Below the pieces are notes generated by a model. That model was not told the origin of the DNA, searched no databases, and saw only the letters and a list, made by a program, of their open reading frames with translations. 64,000 nucleotides of DNA from Sedimentisphaerales bacterium (GTDB lineage: Bacteria; Planctomycetota; Phycisphaerae; Sedimentisphaerales; SM23-30), in contig CAXXFK010000028.1 of assembly GCA_963663965.2 (NCBI GenBank), forward strand, positions 1-64,000, given 5' to 3'. Positions 11,613 to 19,085 of this stretch are shown here, piece after piece. Every line of letters starts with the position of its first letter. The first letter of the stretch is position 1. A program made the translations under genes and the position numbers.

Positions 11613-12815
11613 TTAGATTTCCATGCCGCAGCAGTAACCGCTGGACCAGGCCCATTGCAGGTTATAGCCGCCAAGCTGCCCGGTAACATCTAGTACTTCA
11701 CCGATGAAATATAGCCCGGGTACTGTATTAACTTCCATAGTTTTTGACGATATCTGTTTAGTGCAGATGCCGCCGAAAGCAGCTTCAGCTTTATTAAAAC
11801 CGGCATCGGAGCGAGGTGTGAATTGCCATTTATTTATGCTGTCGGCTATGGTTATTATTTGTTGTTTCGATAGGGATGCTATTGGACCGGTGCAATCTGG
11901 AAAGTATCTTTGCTGCCATAGGTTTATGAACCGTTGTGGCAGATTCTTGTGTAGAAGTTTTGCTATTGTCATAGCTCCATCTGTCTGGCGCGTGATATTG
12001 ATAATATTTGCCAGATCATATCCGTTAAGCCAGTCAATAGCAATTGTGTCACCCTGTTGCCAGGTGTTTGATATCTGTAGGATTGCCGGTCCGCTCAGGC
12101 CGGTATGAGTGAAAAGTACATCTTCTATGAATGTGCTGTTATTACAGCTGACGGCTGCGATAACGCTATTTCCTGCTAAGTCTTCCATATGTTCCAGGTC
12201 TGTCTCATTGTACATTAGAGGAACCAGGGCAGGTTTGGGTTTGATTACTTCCAAACCAAATTTTCTAGCGATCGTATAGCCTGTATTGGTTGCTCCGCAT
12301 TGCGGCCAGGCAGGGCTGCCGGCGGAAACTACAACCTTCTCGGCGGTGAATGATTGGCTTGCTGCTGAAGTGACTGTGTAAATACCATCGTTAAATATTA
12401 CCGAATCTACCGGGAAATCACATTGGATATCGACGTTGGCTTCTTCGCACTTTTTTATGAGTATCTTGACGATGTCCAAAGCACTGCCTGTGCAGAACAG
12501 TCTTCCATAGTCTCTCTGTTCCCATTTGATATCATTTGAATCGAGCAGGTCAATAATGTCCCATTGAGAGTATCTGGCCAAAGCCGATTTGACAAAGTGT
12601 TTGTTATTGCAGTAGAAATTTTCTGCAGAGCAGTCAATATTGGAAAAATTGCATTTACCGCCGCCAGAGATTGGGATTTTACCACCTGGCTTATAGGCTT
12701 TTTCAAGTATCAGTACTTGCTTTTCTCTGGCAGCTGCTGTTGCCCCGCAAATCAGCCCGGCAGCACCGGCACCAATAATGATTATGTCGTATTTTTTCGT
12801 TATTTCTGTCATCAA
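11613..12815 (-). CDS. HI0933/YhiN (BaiN)-family NAD(P)/FAD-dependent oxidoreductase
   Basis: IIIGAGAAGL, SGGGKCNFSN, LFTHTGLSGPAIL, GEVLDVTGQLGGYNLQWAWSSG. Confidence 0.92.
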   Translation of the reverse strand: MMTEITKKYDIIIIGAGAAGLICGATAAAREKQVLILEKAYKPGGKIPISGGGKCNFSNIDCSAENFYCNNKHFVKSALARYSQWDIIDLLDSNDIKWEQRDYGRLFCTGSALDIVKILIKKCEEANVDIQCDFPVDSVIFNDGIYTVTSAASQSFTAEKVVVSAGSPAWPQCGATNTGYTIARKFGLEVIKPKPALVPLMYNETDLEHMEDLAGNSVIAAVSCNNSTFIEDVLFTHTGLSGPAILQISNTWQQGDTIAIDWLNGYDLANIINITRQTDGAMTIAKLLHKNLPQRFINLWQQRYFPDCTGPIASLSKQQIITIADSINKWQFTPRSDAGFNKAEAAFGGICTKQISSKTMEVNTVPGLYFIGEVLDVTGQLGGYNLQWAWSSGYCCGMEI

Positions 12816-13214
12816 AATTATATCTTAGCTTTTCTTATTGTTTAGTTGAAAGCAATATATCTTAAATGTATATGTAGTAAAAGGATATTTTAGAAATCAT
12901 TGTAATTGGTGGAATTTGAAGTATATTTTATTTAACTATGTGTAAAATTGGGAAGTTTATGCCTTTTGTTTTAGTCAGTTAATATATATATAATAGTTAT
13001 TTTATATTATGATTCATTTATATTTTAGCAAGATAGTGATAAGGTTAGAGTATAGAATAGCTCAAGTGGAATAGCTATATGTATATTTAAGTTGTTTTAT
13101 TGTAACCTGTTATTGGTTTTAGTCTATTATTTTAGTGCAATGGCGGTAAAATAGGTAAAGAGTTTTGGTTTCAAAATAATAGATCAAAATAATATCATTC
13201 AATTAAATTTTTTA

Positions 13215-13223
13215 TGGTATAAT
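13215..13223 (+). promoter_or_regulatory. Extended -10 promoter candidate for the downstream PEP-CTERM gene
   Basis: TGgTATAAT in AT-rich DNA, 42 bp left of the IS insertion site. Confidence 0.4.
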
Positions 13224-13402
13224 GCGTTTTTATTTTGTAAGTGGTAAAATGTTATGCAGTTTTCTTGTACTGGTTCAGCGTGAACTGGACAAATCCGTTT
13301 CCAATTTAATAGACTTTTCACTTTGATTATAACAATTGTTTTGCCTTCGGCAAGGCTTTATTTTACAGGTTTTTTAAGGCATTGCAAAGCTCTGAATAGT
13401 TG

Positions 13403-13508
13403 AAAATGGTGGCAGCATATAACCGCCACCATACGACAATTCGTCGCTTAGTTCCGGCTATCCCTGGCAGGTTGCGCCTCCGCAGAGCCTGCTTCCGTTT
13501 CGCCGGAC
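13403..13508 (-). ncRNA. Candidate structured RNA encoded in the IS3 3' region
   Basis: TTGACT-16-GATAAT promoter overlapping the orfB stop; nested stems UCCGGC/GCCGGA and GCAGG/CCUGC, hairpin GCGAC/GUCGU, terminal hairpin GGUGGCGG/CUGCCACC followed by AUUUU. Confidence 0.5.
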
Positions 13509-13538
13509 AATTTCATTATCTGCAACTAACACAGTCAG

Positions 13539-14495
13539 TCAAGCTGATTTTCGTTTCTGCTTTCGGGCTTCCCTTGCTGCCTCCAGCTTTCTATCTCGTT
13601 CGGCATGGATCGCTTCAGCTCTACCTTCAAGCTTGTCTATTGGAGCAATATAACCTATCGCACTATGCAACCGTTTATTATTATAATGGTCAACAAAATC
13701 AGTTACCAGACGACGACCATCTTCCAGAGATAATGGCGTTTTTGGTCTGATACAGGTACTTTTGATAGTTTTATGATACCTTTCAAGCTTGCCGTTACTC
13801 TGTGGGTAATACGGTGAGGTTCTTACATGTGTCATGCCGCTGAGCCTGATATATTCCTTGAAGTCTTTCGATATAAACTGCGGTCCATTGTCAGAGATAA
13901 TCCTCGGATTTTCATCCGGGAACTTCTCCCGGGCTTTCTGTAATATTATTTCCACATCGTATTCTTTCATTGCTTCACGGATTTCCCAGTGAACAATATA
14001 ACGGCTGTAGCCGTCCAAAATACTGCACATATAGTAAAATGTTCCGCAAATATTGAGGTACGATATATCTATATGCCAATGATCGTGAGCCTGTATCGGC
14101 TGAACAAAGCCGGTGCCTTTCTTACTGGCTTTACGGTTCCATCTGTCCATATATCCGGCATCTTTCAATACCCGATATACACTCGATGGACTTACCGCCA
14201 CAATATCGGCATCCATCATCATATAACACAAACTGCGATAACCTTCTTCCGGATACCGCCGGAAATATTCGATTATTGCCAGACGTTCAGCTTCTGTCAG
14301 CCAGAAATCTCTCGGTATCAGACCATTATGGTCATTTTTCATACCGTAACGCTTCTTCCAGTTGTAATACTTACTGCGGGATACCCCCAGCCATTTTATC
14401 ATATTTTTGGCAACAATCTCAGTTTGGTCTGTCCAGTAGCCCACATAGTCAATTACTTCATCACGAACATCAGGTTCAGCCCAGGAACCGTTCAA
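13539..14495 (-). CDS. IS3 transposase OrfB (DDE integrase core)
   Basis: WHIDISY / ISDNGPQF / NGKLERYHKTIK DDE triad; YNNKRLHSAIGY. Confidence 0.95.
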   Translation of the reverse strand: MNGSWAEPDVRDEVIDYVGYWTDQTEIVAKNMIKWLGVSRSKYYNWKKRYGMKNDHNGLIPRDFWLTEAERLAIIEYFRRYPEEGYRSLCYMMMDADIVAVSPSSVYRVLKDAGYMDRWNRKASKKGTGFVQPIQAHDHWHIDISYLNICGTFYYMCSILDGYSRYIVHWEIREAMKEYDVEIILQKAREKFPDENPRIISDNGPQFISKDFKEYIRLSGMTHVRTSPYYPQSNGKLERYHKTIKSTCIRPKTPLSLEDGRRLVTDFVDHYNNKRLHSAIGYIAPIDKLEGRAEAIHAERDRKLEAAREARKQKRKSA

Positions 14496-14809
14496 TCCTC
14501 GCCAAGACTTTTTTTTAGCATAATATGTGACTCCATGATCTCAGCAATCACTCCGTCCTTATGTACAATTCTAGTCTCAAGCTGAGAGATTTTACGCTCT
14601 AATTGCTTATCATAAGCTACCTTACGGCTTTTAGTCTCTTTAGTGAAAGCCGCAGCCCCATTTTCAAAAAACTGCTTCTGCCATGTGTAAAACACATTGG
14701 GATTAAGCCCCGTACGCTCACAAACCTCCGATACCGCAACCTTGTCAACCAAGTGCTCTCGAAGTAACTTAACCTTCTCGTCCGCTGAATAATTCTTACG
14801 CTTTGCCAT
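14492..14809 (-). CDS. IS3 transposase OrfA (HTH)
   Basis: RKNYSADEKVKLL...VSEVCERTGLNPNVFYTWQKQF, followed by a coiled coil. Confidence 0.93.
   Translation of the reverse strand: MAKRKNYSADEKVKLLREHLVDKVAVSEVCERTGLNPNVFYTWQKQFFENGAAAFTKETKSRKVAYDKQLERKISQLETRIVHKDGVIAEIMESHIMLKKSLGED
14508..14516 (-). promoter_or_regulatory. -1 programmed ribosomal frameshift site producing OrfAB
   Basis: Minus strand CTA AAA AAA AGT (A8G); the -1 frame is open into orfB (KKSWRGLNGSW); GGAG upstream and a GGTTC/GAACC hairpin downstream. Confidence 0.8.
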
Positions 14810-14946
14810 GTTTATTTCCTTTCTGCCAGACTATACTAACAGTAATTCAGGAAATGTCCAATTCCATCTGAAGCAATACATTCTACTGTGAGTTTGTTGA
14901 AATAAATATAGAAAAGTGGATTAATACGAAAAAATAAGAAGGTTTT

Positions 14947-16008
14947 GTGGTTATGAAAAAGTTACTAGCTATTTGTATATTATTATATATTTCTTGTGCT
15001 TCGTACGGAGCAAATAGTATACGTCAGATATACTCTTTTGAAGATATGCAGACGTATTTTCCAGCTCAATATGTTTACGGAGCTGTTACAACAGGTGGTC
15101 AGACTTACTGCCAATTGTTTGGAACTTATGTTTCCGGCTTAACATCAGTTTCACGCAGTAGTGATGGAGTTCTATCTAACGATACACTTATTGACCCTGA
15201 GTATTGGAATGTTTTTTCCAAAGGAAAGGAAAGGATGAACTCATACAATAGCATGTCTACCGATGGAAGGTACTTGTATTATATTGAAATGAGTACTGAC
15301 CAGATTCTCAGGACAGACACTTACGATGGAAGTACTTCAGTTTTTGCATATGCTAGTGATATAGCTGCTGCTACAGGTAATACTTCTGCTATATTAGTTT
15401 CCTATGGTGATGAGTATAATAGTGAATATTACTTTTTTGATGCAAGCAGTAGGAGTGTTGTAAAGGCAGCTGGTTCTGGGGTAGATGTATATCTCTCTAA
15501 AACAGAACTTGAGTCATTAACTTCTTATGATGGTTTTTCAGGTTCGTCTTCAGTTGCTGGTGGTATTACATTTGATGATTCAGGTAAAATGTATTGGGGA
15601 TGTAATTCAAATCACAGTATATATTCATGGGATGGTACAGATTGTGAAGTGGTTATTAGTGAAAGTGATATTTCCGCTATTACAGGTCAGGATGTTTTGA
15701 GTTTGGGTGATATTTTTGTTGCACCTGATGGCAATATGTATTTTATGGACAATGGATTTGGAATCTTGAAATATATTTTTCCTGATATTGATAACACAAA
15801 AGGGGCAGTTGAGGTCATTCTAACAGTTGAAGAGTTACTTGATCTTGGCCTTGATACTCAATATGTTTTTTGTTTTGACTGGTGTGATGATAGTTTGGCG
15901 TTTATCGAAAAGACATCTGGTTATTACGAAGTGGTAACACCAGAACCTATGGCAATGACTATGATTAGCTTGGGAGCTATGTTAGTTGCTCGCAGAAAAA
16001 GGCAATAA
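14947..16008 (+). CDS. Secreted PEP-CTERM protein, probable beta-propeller
   Basis: Signal peptide; blade-like motifs (STDGRYLYY, ITFDDSGKMYW, VAPDGNMYF); C-terminal VTPEP + TM helix + RRKRQ. Confidence 0.88.
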   Translation: MVMKKLLAICILLYISCASYGANSIRQIYSFEDMQTYFPAQYVYGAVTTGGQTYCQLFGTYVSGLTSVSRSSDGVLSNDTLIDPEYWNVFSKGKERMNSYNSMSTDGRYLYYIEMSTDQILRTDTYDGSTSVFAYASDIAAATGNTSAILVSYGDEYNSEYYFFDASSRSVVKAAGSGVDVYLSKTELESLTSYDGFSGSSSVAGGITFDDSGKMYWGCNSNHSIYSWDGTDCEVVISESDISAITGQDVLSLGDIFVAPDGNMYFMDNGFGILKYIFPDIDNTKGAVEVILTVEELLDLGLDTQYVFCFDWCDDSLAFIEKTSGYYEVVTPEPMAMTMISLGAMLVARRKRQ

Positions 16009-16066
16009 ACACTAAAAAGAGTTTATTAAGTCCAATTCGGAATAAAATTTATATGTGATATTAAAT

Positions 16067-16110
16067 ATAGAGGCAATAGTGACTTTTGTGATTGTTGCCT
16101 CTATTCTTTT
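16067..16110 (+). terminator. Intrinsic terminator after the PEP-CTERM gene
   Basis: ATAGAGGCAATAGT / ATTGTTGCCTCTAT stem followed by TCTTTT. Confidence 0.75.
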
Positions 16111-16267
16111 GTAATTGGGGTATTTATACTTGTGTGTCTGGAACACAGGTGATTATTTTCTATAAAATGCTTGTAGAAAAAGATTTACTGGCTATTATAT
16201 TTATGTCAGAGTTTGTCTGATAATGTGGATATCTGTCAACTATCTTAAAACAGCAGAATAGAAATGG

Positions 16268-18343
16268 ATGAGTATGAGTGTGTGTAAGTTTACATTATTC
16301 CTTAGCTTATGTCTTTTTGTATGTTTAGAGACTACAGGCATAGGGAAAACACCAGATGTTTTTGAGGAATTAGTGCCTCAAAATCATGCAAATTATGATG
16401 AAAGATCAGGAGATCATACAGGTGCTTTTGCATATAACCCTGTAAATGGTCGTTTTTATGTTTCGACATATGAAGAAGGTGCAGGCATTCGTTGTTTTAT
16501 GCCTGGAGAGGCTGAAGAACCCAATTATCCAGAACCTTATAAGCCTAATAATATTTTAAAAGATGAAAAAGGAGTTTCCTGGTTGTGTGCGAGCAGTTCC
16601 ACTTTGGCTACTGTAATAGGTAGTCCTGACATCGAAGAAGGATTGTATAATCCAGTTTCTTATTTTATTATTCACGGTATGGTACTTAATCCTAAACCGG
16701 TGACAGTAAATGGTACAAATTATGGTGTTGGGGAGCTTGCTATTTTATGTGACGGCGGAGAAGCTGAAAAATCAAGTTATACAAAGAGGATTTTAAGCTG
16801 GGATTTACGAGAAGTCGGTTCTCCTGCTGGTTGTGTTGAAGGTGAAGATCCGAATCTTTGGGATCCGAGCTCAGTATTTTATAATCCCGATAATCTTCCG
16901 GATAAAGCTAATGCTTATTTTGATGTTGACGTCTTGGATATAGAGAAGTTCGGTCAGCAGTTCGGTTATGGCTGTACAAACTGGAATGATACATTTGATT
17001 CTCTGGTGACGCTGCAGGATATGGCCGATGCGATAGGTCTGGGAAATGTGCCAGCGACAAACTACGATAGAGCTGGTGATAAAAGAGCTTGTTTTTCTAG
17101 TGATGGTAAAACGCTTTTTTGGGGTTCAAAAGATTCGCGAGAGGGAACGTGTTATGTTAATCCTAAAACTCATGTAAGAGTTTGTCTTGGTGATAGGAAG
17201 TTTTCTGGTATCTGGTCCTATGGATTGGAGACGGGTGAATTAAGGAGGATTTTCGACGATACCAGTTCGAGTCGGTATACTATTACCAGTTCAGAGATGG
17301 CGGTAGTTCCTGTTGGAGTAAGGAATTTGTCCGGTTTGCCTTATGATGATTCTGTTGATCAGTTGCTGTTTGATGGTTCAGAGGCTAGTGGTAACTTATC
17401 TGGTGTGAACTGTATGATGGTAGATGGTACTAATGAGCCGCCGATCTACCCTGTGGTAAGCGGGACGGATTTCCTGGATTTTGCAGAAATAGATGTTTAT
17501 TCTTTAGAGTACTATGGAATAGATCTGAATGAACCAAATTCTTATCCAAGTGATGAGTTTGATCCAGAATCTTTCGATTTAGAAGATTATGTAAATATTG
17601 ATAAATGGCCGAAGGTCTGGTCTATTACGACTGATGATCAGGGAAATGTTTACTTTTATATGCGTAAACCTAATTCAGTTTATATGTATGATACTAAGGG
17701 GCGTATGGTCTGTATAGAGAATATGGTTCAGGATATTGCTATAAATTATGAAAAGGGAATAGATTCCTTTTATTCCGAGAACCTGAGGCTTGAAAATAGG
17801 AAAGTTGAATATAAGCCAGAGGTTGGAGATAAGTATGAAATAGTTCAGCTTATGTATAATGCCAATGGATTAAATAGTATATATGGGTTAAATGTATTTA
17901 AGCCATGTGATTTTGATCGTGATGGTATTATTACTGAAGCTGACCTTGAGTTTTTTGAAACACAGCTAAATAGGACAAAGGCTGATGATATTCCATTTAT
18001 AGAGGATGAAGGTTATCATGATTACCTTAAGGCTGACTTGAACGGCAGTGGTCGAACATGCAAGGTTCTAATGGAAAGTGAATGTCTGCCAGATAGAACG
18101 GAATTTGAGCTTGGTAATGCCTCTGTTACGGAAAAAGACGTAGAGGTGCTATATGATTTTATTATTCCGGGTAATCTTAACCTGGATGATAGAGTTGATA
18201 TGGCAGATTTTAGTGGATTTGCTAAGAATTATCTTACTGAAGATATGGCCGGCTGGTCTGAAGGTGATTTTGATTTTGATGATGATGTTGACCTGGATGA
18301 TCTTATGTGGATGGCTGATTCCTGGATGATGTATGATGATTAA
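16268..18343 (+). CDS. Secreted acidic propeller-like protein with C-terminal dockerin/EF-hand-like repeats
   Basis: Signal peptide; AYNPVNGRFYV, FSSDGKTLFW, TTDDQGNVYF; Ca-binding loops DFDRDGIITEADL, GNLNLDDRVDMADF, GDFDFDDDVDLDDL. Confidence 0.8.
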   Translation: MSMSVCKFTLFLSLCLFVCLETTGIGKTPDVFEELVPQNHANYDERSGDHTGAFAYNPVNGRFYVSTYEEGAGIRCFMPGEAEEPNYPEPYKPNNILKDEKGVSWLCASSSTLATVIGSPDIEEGLYNPVSYFIIHGMVLNPKPVTVNGTNYGVGELAILCDGGEAEKSSYTKRILSWDLREVGSPAGCVEGEDPNLWDPSSVFYNPDNLPDKANAYFDVDVLDIEKFGQQFGYGCTNWNDTFDSLVTLQDMADAIGLGNVPATNYDRAGDKRACFSSDGKTLFWGSKDSREGTCYVNPKTHVRVCLGDRKFSGIWSYGLETGELRRIFDDTSSSRYTITSSEMAVVPVGVRNLSGLPYDDSVDQLLFDGSEASGNLSGVNCMMVDGTNEPPIYPVVSGTDFLDFAEIDVYSLEYYGIDLNEPNSYPSDEFDPESFDLEDYVNIDKWPKVWSITTDDQGNVYFYMRKPNSVYMYDTKGRMVCIENMVQDIAINYEKGIDSFYSENLRLENRKVEYKPEVGDKYEIVQLMYNANGLNSIYGLNVFKPCDFDRDGIITEADLEFFETQLNRTKADDIPFIEDEGYHDYLKADLNGSGRTCKVLMESECLPDRTEFELGNASVTEKDVEVLYDFIIPGNLNLDDRVDMADFSGFAKNYLTEDMAGWSEGDFDFDDDVDLDDLMWMADSWMMYDD

Positions 18344-19085
18344 TTATGGAGCAAAGCTTGAATCTCATGGTAAGTCTAAAGGCTTTACCATAATAGAGCT
18401 TCTGGTTGTGGTAACCATAATAGCGGTTCTTGTTTCTATTATGCTTCCCTCTATGGCCAGGGCAAGAAAGCAGGCACGGCTAGTAGTGTGTAGCTGCAGT
18501 TTACGTGAGATTGGCCGTTGTTTATTTATGTATGCGATGGATAATAATGATCACTATCCAGATAGTGAAACTCTGGGCGGCTGGAAGTTCAGGGCCGCCC
18601 CAGGCTATGTTGATCCGGATGATCCATGGAGTAAGTATGAGAGATTTGGCCTGGCGGCAATGCTTGATGGCAGAGATCTTGATTTACTCACTGGTAAGTT
18701 CCAAAGCAATAAGCCCAAATACCTGGATAGCCAAAGTGATATATGGATTTGCCCAGATTGCCAGCAAGATTGGATGAGGGAGCTGGGGAATACTTATTCG
18801 TTTTATACAGGGAGCCTTTTAAAAGAAAAAACAGCAACAGATCTGCAAAGAGCGTCAGTTGCAACTGGCGGGCTTATGAATAGTAAAAGGTGGTTTGTCT
18901 GGGATAATATATCTCAATTGCCATATATTTCAGGTGTTATTTTACCTGAAGGTGTAAGTCCAACGGGTTATGTTTTTAAGCCAGAGAATAAAAAGTATCC
19001 TCATTTATTTGGGGGTAAATACAGGAGTGCAGCAAATGTGTTGTACTTTGACCTTCATGTCGAACATTATCTGACTCCGGAATAA
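18333..19085 (+). CDS. Prepilin-type N-terminal cleavage/methylation protein (DUF1559-like)
   Basis: KGFTIIELLVVVTIIAVLVSIMLPSMARARKQA...C..LREIG; C-terminal H...ANVLYFDLHVE (variant of the H-X9-DG motif). Confidence 0.9.
   Translation: MMINYGAKLESHGKSKGFTIIELLVVVTIIAVLVSIMLPSMARARKQARLVVCSCSLREIGRCLFMYAMDNNDHYPDSETLGGWKFRAAPGYVDPDDPWSKYERFGLAAMLDGRDLDLLTGKFQSNKPKYLDSQSDIWICPDCQQDWMRELGNTYSFYTGSLLKEKTATDLQRASVATGGLMNSKRWFVWDNISQLPYISGVILPEGVSPTGYVFKPENKKYPHLFGGKYRSAANVLYFDLHVEHYLTPE

Follow-up and report, generated by a model that had tools for sequence, protein, structure and literature searches.

The window analyzed here, a stretch of 64,000 nucleotides from a Sedimentisphaerales genome (G000), holds an insertion sequence of the IS3 family in which 273 bp separate the stop codon of orfB from the right end of the element. 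What is this tail for? The original prediction, which put its length at about 270 bp, saw in it a structured RNA of about 105 nt on the minus strand, bounded by a promoter and a terminator. Comparison with related loci bears out the RNA, links it to a separate partner site, and suggests a role of the two in starting DNA synthesis on single strands.

The IS3 element and its RNA

The element is complete (Table 1). Its orfA (HTH) and orfB (DDE) overlap in the -1 frame, its ends read TG...CA, its 24-bp terminal repeats are imperfect and it is flanked by a duplication within the 3-4-bp range. OrfB scores 168 bits against the NCBIfam IS3 model (cut-off 160). In public contigs, different flanking sequences join the element at 13265/14880. 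An A8G run at ~14505-14520 (minus strand), directly before the orfA stop, is of the kind usual for IS3 -1 frameshift signals.

Table 1. Positions in the window of the IS3 element, the predicted RNA and its partner site
Feature	Position	Strand	Basis or remark
Complete IS3-family element	13266..14880	-	1,615 bp; single copy in the genome
Left terminal inverted repeat	14857..14880	-	sequence
Right terminal inverted repeat	13266..13289	-	sequence
4-bp target duplication, right copy	13262..13265	.	
4-bp target duplication, left copy	14881..14884	.	
orfA (HTH_Tnp_1), 105 aa	14492..14809	-	
orfB, DDE transposase, 318 aa	13539..14495	-	
Predicted promoter of RNA (-35 13542-13537, -10 13520-13515)	13515..13542	-	consensus match, conserved in relatives
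Predicted small RNA, ~105 nt, both ends inferred	13403..13508	-	fold and covariation
Conserved core of RNA	13453..13507	-	covariation, 62 sequences
P1	13507-13502 with 13458-13453	-	
Purine-rich J1/2	13501-13493	-	
P2	13492-13488 with 13471-13467	-	
P3	13484-13473	-	
J2/1	13466-13459	-	
P5, terminator-like hairpin, then only four T	13406..13432	-	folding, scan
Recognition segment 1: last three P3 tetraloop bases (AGG), complementary to 13369-13367	13477..13479	-	
Recognition segment 2: AGGGAU of J2/1, complementary to box 13382-13377, one purine mismatch	13460..13465	-	
Recognition segment 3: variable guide (13449-13446, 13442-13436), partly hairpin P4 in free RNA	13433..13449	-	
Partner (target) site, ~34 nt	13367..13400	-	unstructured as ssDNA
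Guide complement in site	13400-13394 and 13390-13387	-	
Box ATGCCT	13382-13377	-	
A-run of site	13375-13370	-	
CCT of site	13369-13367	-	
Hairpin 3' of site, possible C-GAA-G triloop (DNA-type mini-hairpin)	13339..13355	-	ViennaRNA prefers alternative pairing
Outward-facing promoter-like site near right end, outside RNA model	13326..13353	-	promoter scan

The RNA and promoter sequences on which the prediction rested are present where it placed them, on the minus strand. The tract folds at -50 kcal/mol (z -4.65), and none of 200 shuffles did as well. In a covariation set of 62 sequences, filtered at 88% identity, 90% of cells in P1-P2-P3 are paired, with 170 double-sided changes; 0 of 500 shuffles equalled this, and slid-register controls dropped to 22-46% paired. 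Most core sequences were found by a pattern with fixed core letters, which left P1, the loop bases and the features of the partner site free, so that the invariance of the core letters is partly built in. The inner stem had been drawn as CUC/GAG; its columns are 67.7% paired, no better than shuffles, and the hairpin that covaries is UGCG/CGCA, which closes a loop of 4 nt; 98% of its cells are paired, and one of its pairs shows 28 double changes. Covariation among relatives supports the tract as a structured non-coding RNA; it has a predicted promoter of its own, and its predicted ends are about those first proposed.

The two proposed boundaries fared differently. A consensus promoter scan gave 10 matches against 5.7 expected, the RNA promoter among them, so the promoter is not significant by itself; what supports it is TTGAC at matching spacing, which 13 of the 15 relatives aligned share and which in most of them does not overlap the stop codon. 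By eye, the promoter type varies with the host: TTGACA-17-RANAAT near the window IS3 clade, TACAAT in copies of a GC-rich group and, in AT-rich copies including plasmid pOR1, a motif like TAnnTTTG, the Bacteroidota promoter consensus. The terminator fits the plasmid copies and is weak in the window and in most IS copies. Here P5 is a GC hairpin followed by its four T, on which a terminator scan made no call, and a rough script found a U-tract between RNA and site in 13/36 IS copies versus 5/8 others. Contigs from public RNA libraries extend over the entire IS, spanning the RNA region and most of orfB alike; being assembled, they carry neither ends nor strand.

The prediction could not assign the RNA to a family, and the search here assigned it to none: Rfam 15 gave nothing at gathering score in the whole window, nothing better than E 6 in 13200-13700, and nothing at E<=0.5 in 20 related loci. 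Nor was there a plain match to a known terminator or REP. Likenesses to SRP domain IV, SAM-I and the c-di-GMP-II aptamer were dropped for want of an Rfam score and for wrong pairing. A short peptide encoded over the core (a 21-codon frame in the window) was rejected because variants of 61 and 63 nt differ by a 2-nt indel, which breaks the reading frame.

A partner site and its pairing with the RNA

Just outside the coordinates of the original prediction, and overlooked there, lies a site of ~34 nt that nearly always accompanies the RNA. For 107 of ~135 cores, a box, a short A-run and a triplet were found no more than 260 nt past the RNA on the same strand. Three segments of the RNA are complementary to this site, and the three pairings are colinear and antiparallel, the RNA running 5'->3' as the site runs 3'->5'. 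Of the 107 loci with a box, 101 have a triplet complementary to the end of the tetraloop (its last three bases); when redundancy was removed and the box was found blind to the loop, the match held in 32/37, with six different triplets, against a permutation mean of 8.1 and a maximum of 19 in 20,000. The hexamer of J2/1 shows compensation in AGGAGU with ACGCCT (L239) and AGCAAU with ATGGCT (L257, L276). J1/2 is also altered in these three hexamer-swapped copies, and there are hints that it may form the third strand of a triple helix with the site.

The guide lies 3' of P1 and its target 5' of the box, and the register of their pairing is constant: 4-5 pairs, then an internal loop, then 7-10 pairs. 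Across 43 loci with <80% guide identity, 7.3 of 12 positions form Watson-Crick pairs versus 3.5 when guides and sites are crossed; none of 10,000 permutations was as good, and shifted registers gave 2.5-4.2. The 12 guide columns were picked after an earlier look at the data, and kin among the loci are not independent. Among blind-check loci, L276 agreed with all three predicted pairings, and L272 with those of guide and hexamer, its triplet showing a single G-T wobble. The guide duplex of the window has one T-T mismatch; such duplexes include tandem G-A mismatches and G-U pairs, and the linker is A-rich. One other box with CCT occurs in the window genome. Taken together, comparative evidence supports the fold and the pairing of its three segments with the site. 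A reading of the purine loops, which had been seen as suited to protein or ligand binding, as serving mainly that purpose is not supported, since the tetraloop and one strand of a loop covary with the partner site.

Hosts of the module and placement of its sites

Among 72 loci of OrfB relatives surveyed, the canonical RNA occurs in 17 (including L056 and L057) and a variant in two (L022, L024). Many IS3 sisters at 60-75% identity end soon past the orfB stop, 16/42 related OrfB loci lack the RNA before the right end, and presence and absence on the OrfB tree require three changes. In two RNA-less sisters (L014, L020), different conserved GC-rich hairpins fill the slot between orfB and the right end, and possibly serve as an alternative ssDNA signal.

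A pattern scan of metagenomes gave at least 120 matches, 119 of them true (chance locus L121 was dropped). Assigned by the nearest reference protein within 330 nt, the 119 loci among the matches listed comprise 40 of the window IS3 clade and 26 of its right end without an ORF, six of other IS3 clades on the opposite strand (two weak), nine IS110 (both orientations), five of an IS256 Zn-variant, four IS21, six RepL-type, one tyrosine recombinase and 22 with no assignment. Overall, the RNA was found in two IS3 clades besides that of the window, in IS21, IS256, IS110 and IS1202-like elements (L254 is hosted by an IS1202-like ISNCY_2 element), in an element with a DDE protein and an ExeA-like ATPase (L245), and, judged by eye without a profile, in ISL3 (L138) and classical IS256 (L272); on small plasmids it adjoins RepL or Rep_3 genes. 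Because the RNA is present in IS21, IS256, IS110, IS1202-like elements and plasmids and absent from many IS3 sisters, its assignment to an IS3 subgroup fails. Named carriers are two Tunicatimonas plasmids, a Hymenobacter plasmid and pOR1 of Ornithobacterium, and IS110 copies in Acidisarcina and Chondrinema. The hosts have no element protein in common, so a partner protein must be host-encoded or absent.

The window genome has one copy; with 36 candidates scored per genome, the model matches 5/150 other genomes of its phylum and 1/151 in the phylum of G152, and the pattern search matches 3/401. The search of phage records with blastn gave no match to the RNA, and an IMG/VR pattern gave one true match of 41, on a contig that a second pattern found again and that was also all that a protein search returned. 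Five other tiny RepL plasmids had no model match, and a crude search for guide copies in four of them found none. A non-autonomous miniature form, sought in 29 loci, had no convincing left end except in one. We rejected ISNCY_1 in L188 as a host that does not form circles: it is a separate insertion with its own repeats, and the RNA there belongs to a convergent IS3. L247 is a weak match near IS1380.

Some copies depart from the common form. A divergent subtype (L022, L024, L240, L257, L276) has AGC in J2/1 and GCT in the box; it escaped the scan pattern, so the family is wider than sampled. Shortened modules of ~61-66 nt (L120, L153, L158, L176, L199, L212, L217), in which guide and guide complement are deleted and the core is fused almost directly to the box, occur in IS3 right-end remnants. 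One of the four copies in genome G151 (L003/L250) has its orfB interrupted by another insertion sequence and keeps the RNA. On a viral contig (L236:1819-2541, same as L078), and at this one locus only, the end of a gene overlaps the RNA. Its product (241 aa) belongs to no Pfam family and has 654 relatives; the predicted structure (pLDDT 92.7) resembles the palm and thumb of reverse transcriptases (best Z 8.2; 172 residues aligned at rmsd 3.8), and no invariant catalytic aspartate pair was seen in the alignment.

The plasmid copies bear on whether the site is read as DNA. Each of the complete plasmids L237, L238 and L239 has one site on either strand, at distances of up to ~1 kb from the RNA gene. 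The pairs form inverted repeats of 26-66 bp, 29-860 bp apart, and the sites match their own plasmid's guide and loop, one L238 site deviating in the triplet. Contigs L155, L171 and L190 likewise have two sites on opposite strands that match their own guide. In most two-site cases the RNA ends in a hairpin and U-tract with no same-strand site nearby. In L155 and L238 the two sites point away from each other across gene-free gaps of 146 and 29 bp, and L237 and L239 each have one of their sites antisense to repL. pOR1 has a single site. Measured round the circle it is 963 bp away from the RNA core, and ~130 bp separate it from four iteron-like repeats that precede a Rep gene; its strand and direction are those of a leading-strand primer leaving the origin. 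Given the two-strand sites and the position of the pOR1 site, the target is probably single-stranded DNA. Other copies vary: both sites of L185 lie on one strand, L186 has no site within its contig, and in L214 guide and site form one continuous hairpin. Plasmid GC skew gave no clear signal.

A C-GNA-G mini-hairpin, which is a stable DNA motif, stands 3' of the site on the target strand in 20/64 cases and on the opposite strand in 3/64 (background 3%); one IS3 clade and one plasmid group supply most of this count. Four tiny RepL plasmids without the RNA also have inverted site pairs (L259:881-966, L260:1042-1216, L261:822-998, L262:874-1059) of 18-31 bp, 50-127 bp apart, like the paired sites of L155; these may represent another two-strand priming system.

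A proposed role in priming, and its alternatives

IS3, IS21, IS256, IS110 and ISL3 elements move through circles, and circle formation is described for IS110 in the available literature. RepL plasmids are classed as rolling-circle plasmids that require a single-strand origin (sso) in the available text of PMC5703833. Because these hosts have no protein in common, and priming on ssDNA is their simplest common need, we propose a priming model. With modest confidence, we read the RNA and its site as a portable RNA-primed module for single-strand initiation, used in second-strand synthesis on transposon circles and plasmid intermediates. Copy-out transposition or plasmid replication would expose the site as ssDNA, on a strand that is circularised or displaced. 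The RNA core would clamp the box, perhaps with J1/2 as third strand, and the guide hairpin would open on the site; a host nuclease, e.g. RNase H, would leave a paired 3' end for a host polymerase to extend. Genes for RNase H and Pol I are present in the window genome, which makes such a route possible there. For the window IS3, the sense strand would be the template, with synthesis running from ~13400 back through orfB and orfA to give the double-stranded circle needed for integration. Plasmids would use one site per strand, or one beside an iteron origin. Since close IS3 sisters lack the RNA, the module would be an optional booster for IS3. More tentative, and a little short of probable, is the wider claim that this is a new class of trans-acting, reprogrammable primer RNA (a 60-nt clamp and a ~20-nt guide) that needs host enzymes only, was captured repeatedly by unrelated copy-out transposons, and became a both-strand origin of small RepL plasmids in place of primase or nickase.

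All of the pairing and two-strand evidence would fit equally well if the RNA paired with DNA and did something other than prime: cut or nick it as a ribozyme, load PriA or a helicase, or act as a copy-number brake by blocking a protein-primed initiation site. The invariant purine-rich core is more elaborate than a primer requires, the RNA ends 3' in a hairpin that offers no ready primer, and RepL is a small HTH protein with no nicking domain described in the available text of PMC5703833. We still hold such roles to be rather unlikely, as the pairing polarity places the 3' part of the RNA at the growing end, cutting its own circle would harm an IS, and Rep_3 iteron plasmids need no nick, yet pOR1 has the module at its origin. 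Alternatively, the site could act as RNA. An IS transcript reaching ~13365 would then fold as a nested double pseudoknot of ~145 nt (a ribozyme or 3'-end protector), and the plasmid RNA would bind other transcripts in trans. The frequent same-strand site within 260 nt suits this idea, as do the G-A mismatches, G-U pairs and A-rich linker, which are typical of RNA; and because a clear U-tract is missing before the site in most IS copies, a longer RNA folded in cis is possible there. The outward-facing sites of L155 and L238, the repL-antisense sites of L237 and L239, the need for two extra transcripts per plasmid and the DNA-type triloops on the target strand make a site acting as RNA unlikely.

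At the opposite extreme, no RNA would act and the whole module would be a folded ssDNA signal of sso or ssi type. Plasmid and IS contexts suit such a signal, and comparative methods are unable to separate ssDNA from RNA motifs (available text of PMC5737381). What makes it very unlikely is that core and site stand on opposite strands in several plasmids and still covary, that a host-matched promoter lies at the 5' end of P1, and that G-U pairs are many in the core on the RNA strand (minus in the window). We give equally little credence to an RNA that binds a protein or ligand, whether as a CsrA sponge through two ANGGA-like motifs, a transposase regulator or a riboswitch-like aptamer. The purine-rich loops do contain two GGA motifs and csrA is present in the window genome; RNAs of the CsrB/RsmZ type carry several conserved GGA in hairpin loops, whereas here the two lie in internal loops, and L257 loses both and keeps its site pairing. 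Moreover, the RNA is present on named Bacteroidota plasmids although CsrA is absent from a Bacteroides control genome, and a transposase or downstream gene common to the hosts is lacking. A mere passenger (a REP-like repeat, bidirectional terminator or short peptide gene) is scarcely credible and, from the sequence comparisons, largely excluded. Its dispensability in sister elements and the 21-codon frame would fit, and where copies are convergent, some of the guide match could stem from an A-tract, hairpin and U-tract. Against a passenger speak the single copy per genome here, the frame-breaking indel, and covariation that holds over 1 kb and between strands.

How does the proposed priming RNA compare with known systems? 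ColE1 RNA II and RNA II of the MRB family (pB1067) resemble it as element-encoded RNAs proposed to start DNA synthesis through host enzymes with no shared initiator. ColE1 RNA II hybridises in cis to its own template strand. That of pB1067 is at least 465 nt long and is overlapped by an antisense RNA I (available text of PMC3035462). The window RNA, in contrast, is ~105 nt, and its family uses a separate site on the non-template or opposite strand, up to 1 kb away, rather than a long RNA hybridising in cis at an origin.

The sso and ssi signals (ssoA of pSN2/RepL plasmids, sso1 of ICEBs1, ssiA/ssiB of RSF1010) share with the site, as proposed here, an orientation-specific role in second-strand priming, an occurrence on RepL plasmids and a link to iteron origins. 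The plasmid site pairs recall ssiA/ssiB of RSF1010, which are a pair on opposite strands. As with such signals, the host elements here either have ssDNA intermediates (for the IS, given their general movement through circles) or carry the site next to an origin. Known sso and ssi signals are folded DNA to which RNA polymerase, host primase or a plasmid primase is recruited (available texts of PMC4595007 and PMC5703833), whereas the present site is unstructured, and what specifies it is pairing with an RNA encoded apart from it.

Among IS-encoded RNAs, the bridge and seek RNAs of IS110/IS1111 and Ssr9 of ISPpu9 are non-coding RNAs whose loops pair with DNA sites, and our RNA too occurs in IS110. 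Bridge RNAs are described, in the sources available, as working with one recombinase and specifying ends and targets; here there are at least five unrelated transposase families and plasmids without one, the site is internal, and only 9/119 metagenome loci listed lie by IS110 and its DEDD recombinase. A choice of insertion target guided by the RNA was rejected, as five insertions (four G151 copies with the same RNA, plus the window) have five different duplications. Ssr9 is described as opposing an antisense RNA. The omega-RNAs of IS200/IS605 (TnpB, IscB) are likewise element-encoded and join a conserved scaffold to a variable guide on its 3' side. Here the element contains both the guide and the sequence that the guide matches, and a scan of neighbouring proteins (57 of 149 ORFs listed, and 23 proteins) found neither TnpB nor IscB. 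The ARRPOF and GEBRO motifs (Weinberg 2017) are also structured, tied to plasmid replication regions and of unknown mechanism. Plasmid motifs of that study average 223-349 nt in its main text (PMC5737381), compared with ~105 nt and no Rfam family match for the window RNA. The comparison further draws on the available parts of 10.1101/2025.01.17.633520 and 10.1101/2022.12.05.519187.

Our literature search found no description of an RNA-plus-site module; subscription papers and supplements were outside its reach, and an entry in a catalogue beyond Rfam may exist. We regard the module, spread over many mobile elements, as real and, as far as searched, undescribed, with strong evidence for its pairing and a function that we infer. 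To our knowledge, how the single-stranded circle of copy-out transposition turns double-stranded is poorly explained. So is the replication of RepL plasmids with only a small HTH protein (available text of PMC5703833). For both problems the module offers a concrete cis signal and an RNA that can be mutated and rescued base by base. If the priming model is true, guide RNAs of mobile elements would serve replication priming as well as nucleases and recombinases, and would do so with no protein dedicated to the task, an RNA-based start of DNA synthesis of an undescribed kind. A short RNA that addresses ssDNA through a changeable guide might also become a tool, e.g. an orthogonal origin in Bacteroidota or Planctomycetota. 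Even if no priming takes place, the module would be a new type of object: a conserved RNA, present in many mobile families, whose pairing with its own element crosses strands.

Several minor features surround the element. Two further multi-copy DDE elements occur in the window genome (contigs C6, C10, C17, C21, C27, C28, C42), with 23-27% identity to OrfB and ten tblastn matches altogether. The IS adjoins a region (14947-19085) that, by eye, encodes a PEP-CTERM-like secreted protein, a dockerin-like protein and a DUF1559-like prepilin; such gene sets are typical of Planctomycetota. On its other side, the outward-facing promoter-like site is of the extended -10 kind and points at an AT-rich region before an HI0933-like gene (11613-12815), which it could drive.
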